The position numbers and the translations under genes were made by a program. A stretch of 59,386 bases of DNA, the filler included. It is 8 parts of 8 records of this genome, joined end to end, with 100 filler letters (N's around TTAATTAATTAA, not from the genome) between each part and the next. Parts side by side here need not be neighbours in the genome. Positions count along the whole stretch, not along the records: positions 41,426 to 48,418 come from SRR31156797_31928; 7 more parts are not named here. One strand, written 5' to 3'. Below the pieces are notes generated by a model. That model was not told the origin of the DNA and did not search any database. It worked only from the letters and a program-made list of their open reading frames with translations. This document shows, piece after piece, positions 3,691-48,635 of the stretch (the first letter of the stretch is position 1; every line of letters begins with the position of its first letter).

Positions 3691-3739
3691 AAAACCGCCC
3701 CTTCTCAGGCACAGGCCCTTGAACAGTTCATAACCTTTA

Positions 3740-3770
3740 TGTTAACCTACCGACAATCCAATGGTTAACA
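3740..3770. promoter_or_regulatory. BirA operator TGTTAACC-N15-GGTTAACA overlapping the birA start codon
   Basis: Perfect 8-bp inverted repeat (3740-3747 / 3763-3770) matching the TGTtAAC-N14-16-GTTaACA BirA consensus. Confidence 0.85.
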
Positions 3771-4555
3771 GATCAACAAAAGAGAACATACTAATCCAGC
3801 TCAAGTCGGCGGATCAGCGCCTCTCGGGGGAGGAACTCAGCCGCCGGATCGGTGTCAGCCGGGTGGCGGTCTGGAAACAGATACAATCCCTGATGGAAGA
3901 GGGCTACCCCATAGACTCCAGTTCCCGGGGCTACAGGCTTCAGCCGGGAGGGGACCTGCTTTCGAGTCTTGAATTCGGTAAGGAAGAGGGAATCCTCTTC
4001 TACAGGGAGCTGGAATCCACTATGGACGAGGCGGTCAGGCAGATCCGGCAGCCGGCCCTCGCGTCCAATACCTTCGTCATCCTGGCGGATCACCAGTCTG
4101 CCGGAGTCGGCCGCGACAGGGAGAACTGGAACTCTCCGACTGGGGGAATCTACCTGACCTTCGTTATCCGGCGAACCATGAAAGCGGAGGAGCTGGGCGC
4201 CCTGAAGAGGAGGGGCATCCTGACGGTCCTGCGCGTCCTCAGCTCCCTGACCGACCGCCGTCTCTCCTACAGGCCATCAGGGGATATCCTTCTGGAAGGG
4301 GCCAAGACCGGAGGCCTGCTGGAGGAGTATCAGGTACGGGGAGACGATCTGCTCTGGTACGCTTTGGGGCTGGGACTCCACCTGAACGATCTGCCGCCCG
4401 ATGATTCGGCCATGACCTCTCTGCGCAGCAGGACGGGGGTCAACGCAGGACGGACGGAAACGGTGCGGAAGCTGAAGGAGAGCTGGGAAGAACTCCTTCG
4501 GAAGCCCATCGGGGAAATAGACAGGGAACTGACCGAATTCAAAGTAGAAGGATAG
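3761..4555 (+). CDS. birA: Group II BirA-like biotin repressor/ligase (HTH + BPL catalytic domain)
   Basis: LSGEELSRRIGVSRVAVWKQIQSL HTH; STMDEA, QSAGVGR...W.SP.GGIYLT and KTGGLL motifs; adjacent to bioY. Confidence 0.85.
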   Translation: MVNRSTKENILIQLKSADQRLSGEELSRRIGVSRVAVWKQIQSLMEEGYPIDSSSRGYRLQPGGDLLSSLEFGKEEGILFYRELESTMDEAVRQIRQPALASNTFVILADHQSAGVGRDRENWNSPTGGIYLTFVIRRTMKAEELGALKRRGILTVLRVLSSLTDRRLSYRPSGDILLEGAKTGGLLEEYQVRGDDLLWYALGLGLHLNDLPPDDSAMTSLRSRTGVNAGRTETVRKLKESWEELLRKPIGEIDRELTEFKVEG

Positions 4556-41005: not shown

Positions 41006-41325
41006 ATGATGGATAAAAAGCGATTTCTTGCCCAGAAAATTGTAACCTTTTTGGAAATGTTTCCAGCCGTAGCTGTTATTGGACCTAGGCAATGCGGAAA
41101 ATCCACATTGGTTAAAGCTGTATGCCCGGACTGGAAATATTATGACCTTGAAAGGCCTGATGATTACCAGCTTATTACCAGTGATCCTTTAGGTTTTTTT
41201 TCAAGACACCGAGAAAACCTCATTATCGATGAGGCACAACAATACCCTGATCTGTTTGGGGTATTGCGTGGAATTATAGATCAGGACAGAAACGACTGCG
41301 GCCGTTTTCTGCTCACTGGATCAAG
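41006..41325 (+). CDS. AAA_14/DUF4143-type ATP-binding protein, 3' truncated
   Basis: GPRQCGKSTL, IIDEAQ, FLLTGS. Confidence 0.85.
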
Positions 41326-41425
41326 NNNNNNNNNNNNNNNNNNNNNNNNNNNNNNNNNNNNNNNNNNNNTTAATTAATTAANNNNNNNNNNNNNNNNNNN
41401 NNNNNNNNNNNNNNNNNNNNNNNNN
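41326..41425. other. Artificial contig spacer 5
   Basis: N44-TTAATTAATTAA-N44. Confidence 0.98.
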
Positions 41426-41465
41426 CAACGGAATAATCCTTATTGTGAATTGCTTAGATTGTATG
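41426..41465 (-). ncRNA. tracrRNA, 5' part (truncated by the contig end)
   Basis: Minus strand reads CATACAATCTAAGCAATTCACAATAAGGATTATTCCGTTG. It shares ATACAATC with the repeat at 48411-48418, resembles Bacteroidota II-C tracrRNAs, and has a TACATTTG -7 box at 41469-41476. Confidence 0.8.
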
Positions 41466-41623
41466 AGGCAAATGTACATATTTTTGACGTGTAAGAAAAA
41501 ATAATTAAAAAAATCCTGTTAATCCCGGGCGAACTCCTGATTACCCAAAGCCACTAAGCTTTTTTACCGCAGAGGTAACGGAGAAGCCGCAGAGGTAGCG
41601 GATCAAAACGTAAATCAAAAACT

Positions 41624-44600
41624 ATGAAAAAAATTTTAGGATTGGATTTAGGAACCAACAGTATTGGTTGGGCATTGATTGATCAAAATTTTGATAAAAA
41701 GAAGGGAGGATTAATGGGCTTGGAAGTAGGATTATTCCGATGAGTCAGGATATTCTAGGTAAATTTGACTCAGGGGTTTCTATTTCTCAAACTGCAGAAC
41801 GAACTGGATATAGAGGTGTCCGTCGTTTATACCAAAAAGATGCTCTGCGCCGCGAACGCTTGCACCGTGTTTTGAATATTCTTGGGTTTTTGCCAGCACA
41901 TTACGCCGAAAGTATTGATTTTGAAAAACGGCTTGGGCAATTCAAAGATGGAAATGAAGTAAAACTCAACTATCGAAAAAATGGCACTTTAAAGCATGAA
42001 TTTATCTTTTTTGATAGCTTTAAAGAAATGGCTGCTGAGTTTGCAGCTAACAATCAAGAAACAAAAATTCCATACGACTGGACTATTTATTTTTTACGCA
42101 AAAAAGCTTTGACGGAAAAAATAAGTGAAGAGGAGTTGGCCTGGATTATTCTAAATTTTAATCAAAAACGAGGCTATTATCAATTAAGGGGAGAAGATGA
42201 TGATGAAAACATAAAAACCTCAAGAACCCGAAAATATTTCGATACACAAAAAATTAAATCCATTACTGATACAAATGAAAAGTATAAAAAATTAAAGGTG
42301 CTAATAGTCGAACTTGAAAATGGAAATAAAGGAAAAATGTTTAAAAAGGAAATTCCAAATTGGATTGGAGTTGAAAAAGATTTTATCGCAACTGTAGATA
42401 TTGATAAAGATGGTAACGATAAATATGATGATGGATTGTTAAGCCAAAAATTCTCAATTCCTACCACTGAACAATGGGAAACTGAATGGAACCTTGTAAA
42501 ATTAAAAACTCAGAATGATATTGAGATTTTTAATGAACGAAATCATACAGTAGGAATTGCAAGTTACATATTCGGCAAATTACTTGAAAACCCCTCCCAA
42601 AAAATCAGGGGAAAACTAGTGCGCACAATTGAACGCAAGTTTTACAAAGAAGAATTAAAACAAATCCTTGAAACACAAGCCCTGTTTCATCCCAAATTAA
42701 AAGATAAAAAATATTACCAGGCCTGTGTTGAAGAATTGTATCCACGAAACGAAGCACACCAAAAAAGCATCAAAGACAAGGGATTTACCTATTTATTTAT
42801 CGATGATATTATTTTTTATCAGCGCCCTTTAAAAAGCAAAAAATCGAGCATTGCCAATTGTCAATATGAATTTCGGACTTACAAAAAGCTATCAGAAATC
42901 AAGGAGAATGGAGTCGTTAAAGAAAAAGAAATAACAGTTAACGAACCCTTGAAGGCCATCCCAAAATCACATCCGCTTTTTCAAGAATTCAGATTGTGGC
43001 AGTTCCTGAAAAATCTAAAAATTTACCAAAAGAATGCAATTGTTGAAAATAAACCTGTATTTGATTTAGATGTAACGAACCGACTTTTACCTGACGAGAA
43101 TGCGGGGGTAGAATTGTTCGATTTTTTAAACGCCAGAAAGGATATCGAGCAAAAACAACTCATCGACTTCTTTGTAAAAAGGAAGGTTATATCACGGCAT
43201 GAGAAAGATAATTACCGATGGAATTACGTGGAAGATAAGAAATACCCCTGCAACGATACCAAAGCACAGTTTGTATCGCGCATGAAAAAAGTAAACGGAA
43301 TGGCAGATTGTGATTTGTTTTTACACGAAAAAACAAAATTGGGTAAAAAGAGCGACTCAATTAAGATGTCGCGGGAGCAACAATTGTGGCACATCATTTA
43401 TTCCATTCACGATAAAAAAGAGTTTGAAAAAGCATTGGAAGCATTTGCTAAGAAACACAATATAGACAAAGAGTCGTTTATTGAAAACTTTAAGAAATTC
43501 CCGCCTTTTAAAAGTGAATATGGTGCCTATTCCGAGAAAGCCATAAAAAAGTTGTTACCCCTAATGCGTTTAGGGAAATATTGGAACGAAGATATAATTC
43601 CCGCTGAAAGCATTGCCCGGTCAGAAATGATTATGGAGCGTTTGTCCAGCATTGGATTTGACAAAAATAAAATTGATGATAAAGTTGCCGATGATGATAT
43701 TCCTAAACAAATCCTAAAAAGTTTCTGCGACTTTCAGGGGCAAAATCCTTGTCGTGGACTAAACACCTATCAGGCTTGTTATTTAGTTTATAACCGACAT
43801 TCCGAAGTAGGCAGTATCAGCTATTGGAAACACCCATCAGATATTGCGAATTATTTGGATGAATTTAAACAGCACAGTTTGCGCAACCCGATTGTTGAAC
43901 AAGTGGTTACCGAAACCTTGCGCGTGGTAAAGGATATTTGGGAACATTTTGGAAATAGCGAGGAACACTTATTTGATGAGATTCACCTTGAATTGGGACG
44001 GGAAATGAAAAATCCGGCAGACAAACGGAAAAAAATGTCGGAGCAGATTACCGAAAATGAAAACACCAATCAAAGAATACGGGAGATTTTACAGGAATTA
44101 GTAAATGACAAAGACGTGCAAGGTGATATTCGGCCATTTTCTCCAAGCCACCAGGAAATCCTTAAAATATATGAGGAAGGAGTTTATCAAAACCCACAAA
44201 CCCGATATTCGGATTTGAGTGTTGATGATGTTGAGAAAATTAGAAAAACTGCATCACCCTCACGCAACGATATTTTACGGTATAAACTTTGGCTTGAACA
44301 AGGCTATGTTTCACCATATACAGGACAGACTATTCCACTGTCACGGCTCTTTACAAGCGATTATCAGATTGAACACATCATACCACAATCACGCTATTTT
44401 GACGATTCGCTCAGTAACAAAATCATTTGCGAAAGCGAAATCAATCAATTGAAGGATAATCAAACCGCATACACTTTTTTGAAAAATGAGCGCGGACGCA
44501 TAGTTGAACTGGCAAAGGGCAAAACAGTCAAGCTTTTCTCTTTGGAAGATTACGAAACGCATTGCAACGATTATTTCGAAAAAAACCGAACCAAACTGCA

Positions 44601-46347
44601 AAAATTATTGAGCGAAGAAATCCCTGAAAGTTTTATCAATAGGCAAATGAACGACAGTCGCTACATAAGCAAACTTGTGAAAGGCTTGCTAAGTAACTTG
44701 GTTCGCGAGGAAAATGAGCTTGAAGCCACCTCCAAAAACCTCGTTCCGGTTTCAGGTGCCATAACTTCAAATTTAAAAAAAGACTGGGGTTTGCATGATA
44801 AGTGGAATGAAATTGTTACACCACGTTTTAAACGCCTAAACCAAATAAGCAATTCCAACGATTTTGGCTTTTGGGACAAAAGTATTAATGCTTTCAGAAT
44901 TACCGTACCAGAGCCCTTAATAAAAGGATTCAACGCAAAACGCATTGATCACCGCCATCACGCACTGGATGCTTTGGTTATTGCCTGCACTACCAAAGAC
45001 CACATCAATTACATAACCTCTTTAAACACAAAACGCAACAATTATGCTTTGGTGTCGAAATTAAGGAGGGTTGAAACCATCGAAATGCTTAATAAAAAAA
45101 CCGGCGAAATAAAAACCAGAGATGTCGCTCGAAATTTCCATCTTCCCTGGCCTGGCTTTCCGGTTGAAGCACACGAATGGCTGGGCAAAACTGTTGTGAG
45201 TTTTAAACAAAACCAACGGATAATTAATAAAACCAACAACAAATTCTGGCATTGGGAAAAGAAAGATGGTATATTAAAAAAGGTATTGGTTCCACAAACC
45301 AAAGGTGATAATTGGGCAATAAGGAAACCTTTGCATAAAGAAACAGTTATCGGCAGTGTGAGTGTTAAGATAAAAAAAACAGTTTCATTTAACAATGGCG
45401 TAAAAGACTGGCAAAATGTGGTTGATAAGGAACTTAAAAAACGAATCAAATCACTGTATGGTTTGGGTGAAAACGAAAAATCAATCCTTAAATACTTCAA
45501 AGAAAATCCATATCAAGTAAATGGTAAGCCTGTTTCTAAGGTTGAAGTTTTTGCATTTACCGAAGGTGCTACTGCCACCCGAGTAGCTTTAACCGAAAAA
45601 TTTACAGCAAAGCAACTGGCCAATGTAACCGATTCTGGAATCCGCACAATTTTAGAAAGACACCTGGAAAACTATCTTGATGAAAAAGGCAATGAACGTT
45701 TCGATTTGGCTTTTAATCCTGAAGGTATAGACGAACTGAATAAAAACATTGAGGATTTAAATAAAGGGAAAAAACACAAGCCAATTTATAAAGTGCGCAT
45801 TTACGAAGAAGGAAAGAAGTTCAACGTTGGGGCAAAAGGAAACAAGAAGAGCAAATTTGTTGAAGCGGCAAAAGGAACCAACTTGTTTTTTGCTGTCTAT
45901 TGGAACGAAGGAAAGCAAAAGCGCGAATTTGAAACGATACCATTAAATGAAGTTATCGAATTTCAAAAATGGCGGGCAACAATTCCAAAAGATGAACAAA
46001 AAGTAACCCCGCTTATCCCTGTGAACTATGAAAAGGGAAATTTCCTTTTTTCGCTTTCACCCAACGATTTGGTGTATGTGCCAACAGAAGACGAAATGGA
46101 AAATCCTAACTCTTTGAGCTTTGAAAATTTATCAGCAGAAGAGGCCGCAAGAGTTTATAAGATGGTGAGTAGTTCATTAAGTCAATGTTTTTTCATACCT
46201 AACCAGGTTGCAACTTCAATTTATAATAAAGTAGAATTTTCTGTACTAAATAAAATGGAGAAATCTACAGATGATGAAATGATTAAAGATAAATGCTGGA
46301 AACTCAAAGTTGACCGCTTAGGAAATATTACAAAAGTAATTCGGTAA
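41624..46347 (+). CDS. cas9: Type II-C Cas9 with a -1 frameshift near codon 25
   Basis: RuvC-I MKKILGLDLGTNSIGWA at 41624 is out of frame with the 41740 ORF. That ORF carries the bridge helix (AERTGYRGVRRL), RuvC-II IHLELGRE, HNH IEHIIPQS...NK and RuvC-III HRHHALDA. Confidence 0.93.
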
Positions 46348-46353
46348 CTCACT

Positions 46354-46386
46354 ACCGACGGCGTCGCTTGAAGCGACACCGTCGGT
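46354..46386 (+). repeat. REP-like 33-nt hairpin, copy 1 (intergenic)
   Basis: ACCGACGGCGTCGCTTGAAGCGACACCGTCGGT; palindrome with one C.A mismatch at stem position 9. Confidence 0.9.
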
Positions 46387-46591
46387 GAAAAGCAAAACCA
46401 TGAATTTTGAAAAAGGACATCTTTTCCACATCTACAACCAGGGAAATAACCGGCAAAAGGTTTTCTTTAACCGGGAGAATTACCTTTATTTTTTAAGGAA
46501 GATAAAAACCTATGTTTTGCCATATGCTGATATCCTGGCGTGGTGCCTGATGCCTAATCACTTTCATTTAATGGTGAAGGTAAACAAAGTA

Positions 46592-46624
46592 AGCGTCGGC
46601 GTCGCTTCGAGCGACACCGACGCT
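46592..46624 (+). repeat. REP-like 33-nt hairpin, copy 2 (in frame inside the transposase)
   Basis: AGCGTCGGCGTCGCTTCGAGCGACACCGACGCT; same C.A mismatch; encodes SVGVASSDTDA. Confidence 0.9.
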
Positions 46625-46990
46625 GAGAAAATGCGCACCTTCAACGATTCCATTGGAATCATGCTACGTTCATACACCAATGCCATCAACAAAAAAACAG
46701 GCAGAACCGGAAAACTCTTTCGTGAAAAAACCAAAGCGGAATGTATAACTTGTCACGATGGAATAACTCCATCCTTCCATAACACCAATTCCGGTACTAT
46801 AATAAGCATCACCCATCCCGAAGAACAATATCCTGAACTTTGCTTTCACTACATCCATCAAAATCCGGTGAAAGCAAAACTGGTGAAAAATCAAACAGAT
46901 TGGGAGTTTTCATCGGCCCAGGACTATGCCGGGATTAGAAACGGAAAACTAATCAACCGTGATGTTACCAGCGAGTATATTGTTAATCTG

Positions 46991-47023
46991 AGCGTTGGTG
47001 TCGCTTTAAGCGACGCCGACGCT
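46991..47023 (-). repeat. REP-like 33-nt hairpin, copy 3 (inverted, in the transposase 3' end)
   Basis: Reverse complement AGCGTCGGCGTCGCTTAAAGCGACACCAACGCT; the + strand encodes SVGVALSDADA. Confidence 0.9.
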
Positions 47024-47043
47024 GGAAAACATAAAACCTTATT

Positions 47044-47943
47044 ATGATCAAAAGAACCCTCTATTTTGGCAATCCCTGCTACTTAAAAAAAAAGCAGGAT
47101 CAGCTTCAGGTGGATTATCCTGATGAAGACCTTGATTCTAAATCTGTTCCCATCGAAGACATTGGAATTGTTGTTCTTGACAATCCACGTGTTACAATTA
47201 CTCAGGCTTTGCTAACTGCCATTTCTGAAAACAATGCGGTAATCATTAACTGCAATTCCCATCACATGCCGTTTGCTTTGATGCTTCCAATAGCAGCACA
47301 TAGCACTTACACCGAAAAACTCCGTTTCCAGCTTGATTCTTCAGTACCGCTGCGAAAAAACCTGTGGCAACAAACCGTTGTAGCAAAAATCAACAATCAG
47401 GCCGCATTGTTGGCACATTGGGGCATCGATGTGCAAAACATGAAATATTGGGCGAAACAGGTTAAAAGCGGAGATCCCGAAAACATGGAAGCGCGTGCTG
47501 CAGCTTTTTATTGGGGTAAGTATCTCGAAGGATTTAAACGGCATCGCTATGGTACCCCTCCCAATAATCTGCTCAATTACGGTTATGCCATACTTCGGGC
47601 TGTTGTGGCACGATCGCTGGTTGCCAGCGGTATGTTGCCGGCATTGGGAATTCACCACCGCAACAAGTATAATCCATTTTGTTTGGCCGATGATATTATG
47701 GAACCCTTCCGTCCGTGGGTTGATCGTCTGGTGATGGAGATTTGTGAGGAACAGGAAAACATTGAAGAATTAACACCTGAACTCAAACGTGCTTTGCTAT
47801 CTATTCCGGTTTTGGATATTTATATCGACAAACAGAAGAGCCCTTTAATGGTGGGCGTACAACGAACTACTGCCTCGCTGATGCAATGTTTTGAAGGGAC
47901 TACGAGAAAAATAATTTATTCTGAGTTTGTTGATCAATCGTAA
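47044..47943 (+). CDS. cas1: Type II CRISPR-associated Cas1
   Basis: [54 protein letters not shown]. Confidence 0.95.
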
Positions 47944-48281
47944 TGAAACTTGAAGCATTAAACCAATACCGGATCATGTGGGTATTTGTATTTTATGACC
48001 TCCCGACCGAAACCAAAAAAGACCGGCGGAATTTTACCCTGTTCAGAAAACGATTGCAACAGGACGGCTTTTCCATGCTACAGTATTCCATCTATGTGAG
48101 GCACTGCAACAGCCGCGAAAACGCCGAAGTACATCAACGAAGGGTAAAAAGCTTTCTCCCACCCAAAGGAGAGATTATCATGTTTACCTTAACCGATAAA
48201 CAGTTCGGCATGATGGAGTTCTTCAGGTCGGCGCAAGAGAGCAAAAAGCCTGACACACCCCAGCAACTGGAATTATTCTGA
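47943..48281 (+). CDS. cas2: Cas2
   Basis: [40 protein letters not shown]. Confidence 0.95.
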
Positions 48282-48389
48282 AAACAAAAAACCGGACCCC
48301 TTTTCAGGAATCCGGTAATTTCCTATCTGATTTTTCAATCGAAATATTGACCCTAAATCACTGATTTCATGCTGTTTGTTATGCGGTAT

Positions 48390-48418
48390 GCTGAAATCAA
48401 TATTTCAAAGATACAATC
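48390..48418 (-). CRISPR. First (partial) CRISPR repeat; the array is cut by the contig end
   Basis: GCTGAAATCAATATTTCAAAGATACAATC lies ~110 nt after cas2 and its end matches the tracrRNA anti-repeat. Only one partial repeat is visible, with no spacers. Confidence 0.6.
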
Positions 48419-48518
48419 NNNNNNNNNNNNNNNNNNNNNNNNNNNNNNNNNNNNNNNNNNNNTTAATTAATTAANNNNNNNNNNNNNNNNNNNNNNNNNN
48501 NNNNNNNNNNNNNNNNNN
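48419..48518. other. Artificial contig spacer 6
   Basis: N44-TTAATTAATTAA-N44. Confidence 0.98.
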
Positions 48519-48635
48519 GACACCCTGCTTGTTTCCATGTTCAACAAAAACATTTCACTTGGAATTGTGAGACTGAAAGTCGCTGAGACCATCAAGGAAA
48601 TTATTCAGGTGCTGGCCGACCCGGATATCCCATGA
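48519..48635 (+). CDS. MglB-like roadblock/LC7 protein, C-terminal fragment
   Basis: Manual translation DTLLVSMFNKNISLGIVRLKVAETIKEIIQVL shows the roadblock SLG.VRL motif; directly upstream of mglA. Confidence 0.75.
   Translation, partial: DTLLVSMFNKNISLGIVRLKVAETIKEIIQVLADPDIP

Follow-up and report, generated by a model that had tools for sequence, protein, structure and literature searches.

A RAYT-Type HUH Gene with Its Own Hairpins between cas9 and cas1 of Type II-C CRISPR-cas Operons

RAYTs are the textbook "domesticated transposases", and their benefit to the cell is still unknown. We describe here a RAYT/TnpA_REP-type Y1 HUH gene which, together with three hairpins resembling repetitive extragenic palindromes (REPs), occupies the gap between cas9 and cas1 of a type II-C CRISPR-cas operon. 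The operon was found in a window (i.e., the whole stretch of DNA that was analysed, 59,386 bases) which is a scaffold of separate contigs joined by N-runs with TTAATTAATTAA linkers; the contig bearing the cas genes spans positions 41427-48418, between the linkers at 41327-41426 and 48419-48528. Genes of the same kind recur at this junction in many related genomes, belong to several subfamilies, and do not co-diverge with the Cas1 and Cas2 proteins encoded beside them.

The Cas Locus of the Window

The cas contig carries the following features:

41624..46347, plus strand: cas9 (type II-C), with RuvC_III, HNH_4 and bridge helix; TIGR01865, 356.6 bits; main open reading frame (ORF) 41740-46347
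46354..46386, plus strand: REP-like hairpin 1, in the interval from the cas9 stop to the RAYT start, with a C.A mismatch; -16.4 kcal/mol, z -7.15
46400..47047, plus strand: RAYT/TnpA_REP-type Y1 HUH gene, 215 amino acids (aa); H54, H56 and Y151 present; Y1_Tnp 19.7 bits; REP_Tyr_transpos 49.9 bits; match to 4ER8
46592..46624, plus strand: REP-like hairpin 2, in frame in the RAYT ORF just past the HUH strand; codes for part of VSVGVASSDTDAE
46991..47023, plus strand: REP-like hairpin 3, of opposite polarity (T.G); the 3' end of the ORF reads through it
47044..47943, plus strand: cas1 (type II); TIGR03639, 291.6 bits
47943..48281, plus strand: cas2; profile matches
48390..48418, strand not assigned: probable first CRISPR repeat, start only (contig end); partial copy, tentative

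The RAYT ORF begins with an ATG at 46400, in agreement with the starts of its homologues (a further GTG lies upstream, at 46385), and its TGA stop overlaps the cas1 start as ATGA at 47044-47047. The protein displays the motifs NHFH (residues 53-56), YIHQNP (151-156), and WEFSS (168-172). An earlier reading of this DNA from its letters only (hereafter the sequence-only reading) had proposed an intact Y1 HUH gene with HFH, YIH.NP and W..SS motifs in the cas9-cas1 gap, its stop overlapping the cas1 ATG, and the 215-aa ORF bears this out. The same reading held that the element sits inside the operon with cas9 and cas1 unbroken by it, which is indeed the case.

Identity of the RAYT Gene

More than 4,123 proteins match the window RAYT. 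The best 120 are 60-76% identical to it, and all the names given by their sources are Bacteroidales or Bacteroidota metagenome-assembled genomes (MAGs). Its profile scores lie under the respective cut-offs, i.e., 23 bits for Pfam Y1_Tnp (PF01797) and 80 bits for NCBIfam REP_Tyr_transpos. We aligned 21 RAYT homologues in a profile (A1), in which H54, H56, and Y151 are invariant, and used it for a sequence search of the PDB. The sole match was 4ER8, the E. coli TnpA_REP bound to a REP hairpin (E=0.0059), with the HUH strand and the Tyr helix aligned. An AlphaFold2 model of moderate quality (pLDDT 66, pTM 0.69) also retrieved 4er8_A first with Foldseek (E=1.9e-5), followed by the TnpA of IS608, ISDra2, and IS200; the ten matches at E<=0.001 are all Y1 transposases. 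Because 4ER8 comes out best by both the sequence profile and the modelled fold, we identify the predicted product as a RAYT/TnpA_REP-type Y1 HUH enzyme. The proposal that the gene is RAYT-like and has its own imperfect hairpins is therefore upheld by the 4ER8 match, the fold match, and the hairpins at the gene. Moreover, its Y motif, YIHQNP, corresponds to the type YIxxNP of class 2 RAYTs in a table of PMC6006769. Close copies are single in each of four genomes (G001, G002, G003, and G005; G and L numbers are our handles for genomes and loci), and the RAYT paralogues of G356 share about 66% identity with the family members that they match best.

Three Hairpins at the RAYT Gene

The core GTCGCTTNRAGCGAC is found at three sites in the window, all at the RAYT gene, where 0.01 would be expected by chance; none of 100 shuffles contained as many. 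These sites are the three 33-nucleotide (nt) palindromes which the sequence-only reading had placed at 46354, 46592, and 46991. As single-stranded DNA (ssDNA), each forms a 15-bp stem with a 3-nt loop, with energies of -15.6 to -16.8 kcal/mol (z -4.9 to -7.2), and none of 200 shuffles folded as well. Hairpins 1 and 2 contain a C.A mismatch located 9 bp from the foot (7 from the loop), and hairpin 3 shows a T.G at this site, i.e., the C.A seen from the opposite strand, plus a second T.G. The outer stems of hairpins 1 and 2 are unlike in sequence and keep their pairing. The stem details that had been read from the letters, namely swapped yet paired outer stems, a conserved C.A, and an inverted third copy, were thus all recovered. 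No T-runs follow the window hairpins.

We also compared the contigs of four DNA runs. Those of the probable source run break at hairpin 2, and in other samples relatives at 85-95% likeness cover pieces of cas9, RAYT, and cas1; no clean joined cas9-cas1 form without the RAYT was seen in these contigs.

Recurrence of RAYTs between cas9 and cas1

Among the 78 best related loci, taken from one genome per species, 16 show the order cas9-RAYT-cas1(-cas2), or cas9-RAYT and then the contig end. We further analysed an even sample of 401 genomes from the order of G001, where a type II cas1 (E<=1e-20) is present in 141 genomes and a RAYT match (E<=1e-10) in 151. The places of RAYTs were counted among the 150 matches listed, with 157 weaker ones outside this count, and RAYT and cas1 places were cross-read by eye. 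Among the matches listed, at least 25 genomes carry a close-family RAYT directly upstream of cas1 and on the same strand, and at least eight further genomes a divergent RAYT between cas9 and cas1 (in G183, with a small gene between RAYT and cas1). Together with G158, G352, and G404, these 33 cross-read genomes bring the RAYTs between cas9 and cas1 to at least 36 of the 141 type II cas1 genomes. The view that canonical II-C loci are devoid of such a gene, from which the sequence-only reading had started, does not hold for the sampled order. In one genome with two II-C loci (G265:C1:1209907-1212199), both have a RAYT upstream of cas1, and one of them has a tandem RAYT pair.

The 56 closest RAYT hits (E<=1e-60) comprise 27 located upstream of cas1, three elsewhere in II-C loci, and 24 outside CRISPR loci, L126 and G356:C25 being assigned to neither group. 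About half of the close homologues hence lie in unrelated contexts, where housekeeping genes adjoin them. In Chitinophagaceae and one Flavobacteriaceae MAG, RAYTs adjoin the dihydrouridine synthase gene, dus (L053, L059, L063, L068, and L030), which suggests that they are stably inherited vertically there.

The 40 cas1 loci closest to that of the window were sorted by the content of the gap: 12 hold a close-family RAYT, five a divergent one, 17 are empty, and six are other sites, with an HNH-like ORF, an ATPase ORF, or an unexplained gap. The divergent gap RAYTs are 24-36% identical to their best-matching family member, and that of L111 clears Pfam Y1_Tnp at 31.1 bits. At the empty sites, the cas9-cas1 gap does not exceed 152 nt, and 5 of the 17 have an ATGA shared by the cas9 stop and the cas1 start. 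The gap of L095 (original strand 1424-2032) carries a 202-aa ORF weakly matching HNH, and that of L096 (765-1940) a 391-aa ATPase (ATPase_2/AAA_14).

Translational coupling to cas1, which had been proposed from the ATGA overlap, does not extend to the system as a whole. Among 30 linked loci, the overlap is seen in the window only; the gap is 2 nt in L024 and 11-272 nt in the others. The window overlap results from an ORF that continues through hairpin 3 and ends 19 residues later than most homologues.

Other Positions and Type I Operons

RAYTs also occupy other positions of II-C loci: upstream of cas9 (L130, and a degenerate extra copy in L148), between cas1 and cas2 (L145), and past cas2 or the array (L026 and L147). 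In L146, the RAYT adjoins cas9 and cas1-cas2 are inverted. Type I operons are concerned as well. In L036, one of the 78 related loci, a RAYT (3737-4402) lies between cas7 and cas4-cas1. A Cas1 like that of L036 is present in 40 of the 401 sampled genomes, and cross-reading with the listed RAYT places gave at least three type I operons with a RAYT:

L149:3758-4384, RAYT: effector genes, RAYT, cas4, cas1, cas2; 4-nt overlap between the RAYT and cas4 ORFs
L150:3492-4112, RAYT: cas3, unnamed ORF, DUF6261, RAYT, UPF0158, cas4, 23S_rRNA_IVP-family gene, cas1, cas2
L151:2568-3236, RAYT: cas6, unnamed ORF, RAYT, effector genes (large-subunit gene, cas8), cas4-cas1-cas2

A DUF6261 gene stands beside the RAYT in L121 (1774-2436, II-C) and L150 (2693-3430, type I), and a 23S_rRNA_IVP-family gene accompanies it in L147 (8056-8316, II-C) and L150 (5261-5635, type I). 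Since both gene types occur with RAYTs of type II and type I loci, the effector/adaptation junction collects a recurring set of small genes.

Hairpins across the RAYT Family

In profile A1, the stretch directly past the HUH strand varies in length and resembles palindromes translated in different frames. At the DNA level, we looked for in-gene hairpins that start at +170 to +300 of the ORF and have 12 or more of 15 pairs. In the window's clade 30 of the 43 genes contain one, as do 4 of 36 more distant genes; elsewhere in the first 560 nt, a hairpin was found in only 2 of the 43 clade genes, and codon-shuffled ORFs gave any hairpin in 15 of 860. Most of the in-gene copies (36 of 42) start in phase 0. 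Hairpins also flank the gene in this clade, upstream in 20 cases and downstream in 29. Their stem sequences diverge widely among loci, and their position and 15+3+15 layout remain constant. We preferred this position-based control to pair counting on 111 aligned hairpins, as picks of a palindrome finder would make such counts circular. By far the commonest mismatch among 126 hairpins is at position 7 from the loop, with C.A observed 23 times and T.G 17 times.

Exact cores were also counted over whole genomes, the counts being lower bounds as no mismatch was allowed. G001 (complete, 5.5 Mb) contains two, both at the gene, G002 five, G005 four, G356 nine, and G406 and G409 three each. In these six Bacteroidales genomes the copies lie mostly at the RAYT gene, and a genome-wide dispersal of many REP copies was not encountered in any of them. 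The hairpins of the window's clade are largely private to the RAYT unit. On the other hand, G408 (Saprospiraceae, the genome of L038) holds a more distant family member and 173 copies of the core GTGACT-loop-AGTCAC, against 1 for the control; the RAYT family can thus act as a classical many-copy REP/RAYT system.

The cognate hairpins spread over the locus. They are found upstream of cas9 (L055 and L008), between cas1 and cas2 (L013 and L024), and past cas2 (L005 and L008). Hairpins of 33 nt even lie in frame within cas1 (L004:2557-2589 and L005:11027-11059). An insert of 11-13 residues is common to the Cas1 of L001, L004, L005, and L008 at one place, and that of L004 resembles the peptide coded by the in-RAYT hairpins. 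This distribution fits an enzyme acting mainly near its own gene. In a palindrome scan of the 40 closest cas1 loci, palindromes of the RAYT-hairpin kind were seen only together with a RAYT and at none of the 17 empty sites. The 152-nt cas9-cas1 gap of L088, otherwise empty, contains two CACGGGGTGA-type half-hairpins about 60 nt apart (a split remnant), which may be the footprint of a lost RAYT unit.

Evolution Relative to the cas Genes

A tree of 79 RAYTs, built by a quick method and excluding L020 and L055, which are broken, groups all 15 linked copies in one starred clade of 43, where they are interleaved with unlinked copies. The linked or unlinked state changes 12 times on this tree, and at least 4 of the changes are forced by starred branches. 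We then compared pairwise identities at 30 linked loci by Mantel tests. The broken copies (frameshifted in L020 and L055, both from isolate genomes), L111, and L098 (genome G053, where the RAYT matches in two pieces and the locus holds an N-run) were left out. The comparison of RAYT with cas1, which the sequence-only reading had called for, revealed no tracking (r=-0.05; 1161 of 2000 permutations as high), and RAYT against Cas2 gave r=0.04 (581/2000), while the control, Cas1 against Cas2, gave r=0.79 (0/2000). Restricted to the close family (n=26), the values are 0.13 with Cas1 (233/2000) and 0.19 with Cas2 (15/2000). In L082, L090, L092, and L114, Cas1 is 54-65% identical to that of the window and the RAYT just 26-34%. 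This absence of co-divergence between RAYT and Cas1 implies that the slot is refilled or exchanged, and that the module is not passed on with a fixed occupant. Decayed copies exist too: the linked remnant of G162 comprises residues 1-69 only, and the second copy of L148 has decayed.

Other Features of the cas Contig

On the plus strand of the cas contig, TAnnTTTG, a promoter motif of Bacteroidetes, is confined to 41479 and 41760, and there is none from the cas9 stop to the cas1 start. As the window shows no enrichment of the motif, with 31 matches where 42.8 would be expected, its absence ahead of these two genes (RAYT and cas1) carries little weight. The contig has no tnpB-like ORF, and an Rfam search of it (E<=0.1) gave no match, so that neither a tracrRNA nor another family was named.

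The RuvC-I start of cas9 (MKKILGLDLGTNSIGWAL..., ATG 41624) is out of frame with the main ORF from 41740. The frame shifts by one base near an A-run, between about 41700 and 41740, which may reflect either a real frameshift or an assembly error. At the other end of the contig, the final 14 bases of the probable repeat (48390-48418) are identical to part of the 46-nt repeat of the L035 array, which counts about 30 repeats with a period of 76 (L035:12113-14431). Both share CAAAGATA, which is TATCTTTG read on the minus strand. II-C arrays with promoters borne by their repeats have been reported (PMC10309648), and TATCTTTG inside the probable repeat fits the promoters described there. Compared by eye, the hairpins do not resemble the probable repeat. 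Left of the cas contig, an AAA_14 ATPase ORF (41006-41377) runs into the linker. Because the scaffold consists of joined contigs, it gives no evidence that genes left of 41427 or right of 48528 adjoin the cas locus in the genome.

A Passenger of cas Operons?

The account that we favour, with moderate confidence, is that of a self-contained RAYT-plus-hairpin unit which has come to reside in cas operons time and again, transcribed with them as a passenger. Gene and hairpins together would form a REPtron, i.e., a RAYT ssDNA nuclease/transferase with private cognate REP hairpins, installed at the junction of the effector gene (cas9) and the adaptation genes (cas1-cas2). The RAYT is probably transcribed together with the operon, judging from its orientation on the operon strand and from the lack of an evident promoter motif of its own. 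By analogy with solved relatives (4ER8 and the IS608-type enzymes), the protein may bind the imperfect hairpin on one strand of single-stranded DNA, then cut and rejoin the DNA beside it by means of an HUH-bound metal and Tyr151. Over evolutionary time, units would enter, leave, and replace one another at the cas9-cas1 slot, and would also seed additional hairpins at nearby junctions of the same locus. Their enrichment in cas operons would then reflect a bias of insertion or retention and no fixed partnership with Cas1-Cas2; this bias could come from targeted insertion, from better retention, or from transfer along with defence loci. The sequence-only reading had left the choice between a REPtron landed without breaking the operon and a domesticated ssDNA nuclease co-expressed with the adaptation module. 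The former fits better than a nuclease integrated with that module, because RAYT and Cas1/Cas2 do not co-diverge.

Several observations weigh against the passenger account. The HUH histidines (H54 and H56) are kept in 30 of the 30 linked copies, and Y151 in 29. Every linked RAYT found shares the strand of the cas genes and is closely spaced with them, as an operon member should be. At least a quarter of the II-C loci are occupied at one junction, by independent RAYT subfamilies, which needs a strong bias, and at least four type I operons (L036, L149, L150, and L151) harbour a RAYT, which in three of them lies just upstream of cas4-cas1. The RAYT insertion junctions show no visible target motif in common, and no identical multi-copy RAYTs were seen, so that a direct sign of recent transposition is missing. 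Finally, the Mantel tests used raw identities, in which hairpin-coded columns are included.

Alternatively, the RAYT could be a genuine adaptation accessory, an ssDNA nuclease recruited interchangeably from several subfamilies and helping Cas1-Cas2, perhaps in making or trimming single-stranded prespacers or by acting on the leader or array. We regard this as rather unlikely. It agrees with the location of the RAYT immediately ahead of the adaptation genes, both in type II loci and in L036, L149, and L150 (three of the four type I operons), with the constant strand and tight spacing, and with the catalytic residues kept in 29 to 30 of the 30 copies. Moreover, type II-C systems have no fourth adaptation gene, such as the csn2 or cas4 of II-A and II-B. 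On the other side, the RAYT co-diverges with neither Cas1 nor Cas2. Of the 40 closest loci, 17 are without it, linked copies are broken in some cases, about half of the close homologues adjoin housekeeping genes, and the placement varies (upstream of cas9, in the cas1/cas2 gap, past the array, or in the cas6/cas8 gap). The evident substrate of the RAYT is, besides, its own hairpin. In its broadest form, the idea would make RAYT-type hairpin nucleases an exchangeable and as yet unnamed helper of CRISPR adaptation modules in Bacteroidota, repeatedly recruited just upstream of cas1 (type II) or cas4-cas1 (type I), and either acting on ssDNA in spacer uptake or setting adaptation-gene expression via the hairpins; to this we likewise give a minor share of credence.

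Less plausible again is that the hairpins are retained for acting on the RNA or DNA of the operon, as attenuator, processing site, or mRNA stabiliser, so as to separate cas9 from cas1-cas2 expression, the RAYT merely maintaining them. Hairpins do lie at gene junctions of the locus, 5 of the 17 empty loci couple cas9 and cas1 by an ATGA overlap, no plus-strand TAnnTTTG separates the two genes in the window, and such roles are credited to REPs in enterobacteria (abstract of PMC3733652). On the contrary, hairpins in frame within RAYT and cas1 have no obvious role of this kind, those of the window have no trailing T-runs, and many loci manage without hairpins.

A one-off chance insertion with no CRISPR bias is very improbable: the two observations that the sequence-only reading would have counted for it, empty sites in close relatives (17/40) and homologues in many unrelated contexts, were both made, but the recurrence counts contradict it, as at least 36 of the 141 genomes with a type II cas1, each of 2-8 Mb and with one to seven RAYT matches, have a RAYT within this few-hundred-base gap, which is far beyond chance, and several subfamilies and two CRISPR types are involved. 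Hardly credible at all is a relic of the IS200/IS605-type transposon ancestral to cas9 (tnpA beside iscB): Y1 transposases do accompany IscB and TnpB in IS200/IS605 elements (PMC6452270), and the fold also matches the TnpA of IS608 and ISDra2, but the protein is of the RAYT and not the IS200 class (its Y motif ends in NP and its best match is 4ER8), is patchy among close cas1 relatives and decoupled from Cas1, and genes of its type also occur in type I operons, which are without cas9.

The passenger account, if true, offers a clear case of a mobile element with defence loci as harbour and vehicle; the accessory account would add a new activity aiding spacer uptake. For the study of RAYTs and of type II-C systems alike, a RAYT lineage with about half of its members inside CRISPR-cas operons (30 of the 56 closest hits) provides a concrete and testable link.

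Comparison with Known Systems

The REPs of E. coli number in the hundreds and are extragenic, and its TnpA_REP gene presumably does not lie in a cas operon. The Bacteroidales genomes contrast with this by their 2 to 9 exact-core copies (six genomes), mostly at the gene. The E. coli enzyme (4ER8) is nevertheless the best sequence and fold match of the window RAYT among solved structures, and both have the HUH and Tyr chemistry and imperfect hairpins beside the gene, at an identity of about 18%. The TnpA of IS200/IS605 elements (IS608 and ISDra2) presents the same fold, hairpins near both ends of the unit, and an ssDNA mechanism that may by analogy be shared. It differs in the class of its Y motif, which ends in Q in IS200, and the RAYT has neither identical multi-copy elements, as far as seen, nor a tnpB/iscB partner.

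Among the closest published groups is TnpA_REP subclass 2.4, the RAYT group 4 of Bertels et al., which is found in Cyanobacteria and Bacteroidetes and for which a REP inside the gene is already published (Quentin 2018, PMC6006769). Like this subclass, the window RAYT is a class 2 Y1 HUH protein of about 200 aa from Bacteroidetes with an NH[IFV]H-type motif, and it has a low copy number, flanking REPs, and an in-gene hairpin. It departs from it by YIHQNP, which follows the pattern YIH[QN]NP of subclass 2.6 and not YIxNNP, by FR where the table has WQ, and by its SS tail motif, tabulated for subclasses 2.1, 2.2, and 2.6. By the published traits, the in-gene hairpin and NH[IFV]H of the window RAYT agree with subclass 2.4, while its Y motif and SS tail fit subclass 2.6 better.

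The accessible text of PMC6006769 contains no occurrence of CRISPR or cas1, that of PMC3737331 does not use the word "transposase", and the consulted part of the preprint of Shmakov et al. on CRISPR-linked genes mentions a transposase once (COG5421). In the open literature, including the accessible parts of PMC10309648, PMC6006769, bioRxiv 10.1101/270033, PMC3737331, PMC8266576, and PMC6452270, we came across no account of a RAYT located within a cas operon. Earlier work covers the RAYT class, its REPs, and the in-gene REP. Apparently undescribed is the residence of RAYTs from different subfamilies in CRISPR-cas operons of at least two types, mostly at the effector/adaptation boundary.

On the CRISPR side, the window resembles the long-repeat subcluster of II-C systems from Bacteroidetes (Chylinski et al. 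2013, PMC3737331), which has cas9-cas1-cas2 without csn2 or cas4, and the 46-nt repeat of L035 is in line with it. Compared with what is accessible on this subcluster, the window adds a RAYT and its hairpins between cas9 and cas1. For annotation, cas9-RAYT-cas1 loci are to be regarded as complete II-C systems and not as disrupted ones, and the hairpin-coded inserts in RAYT and Cas1 are not to be taken for errors.

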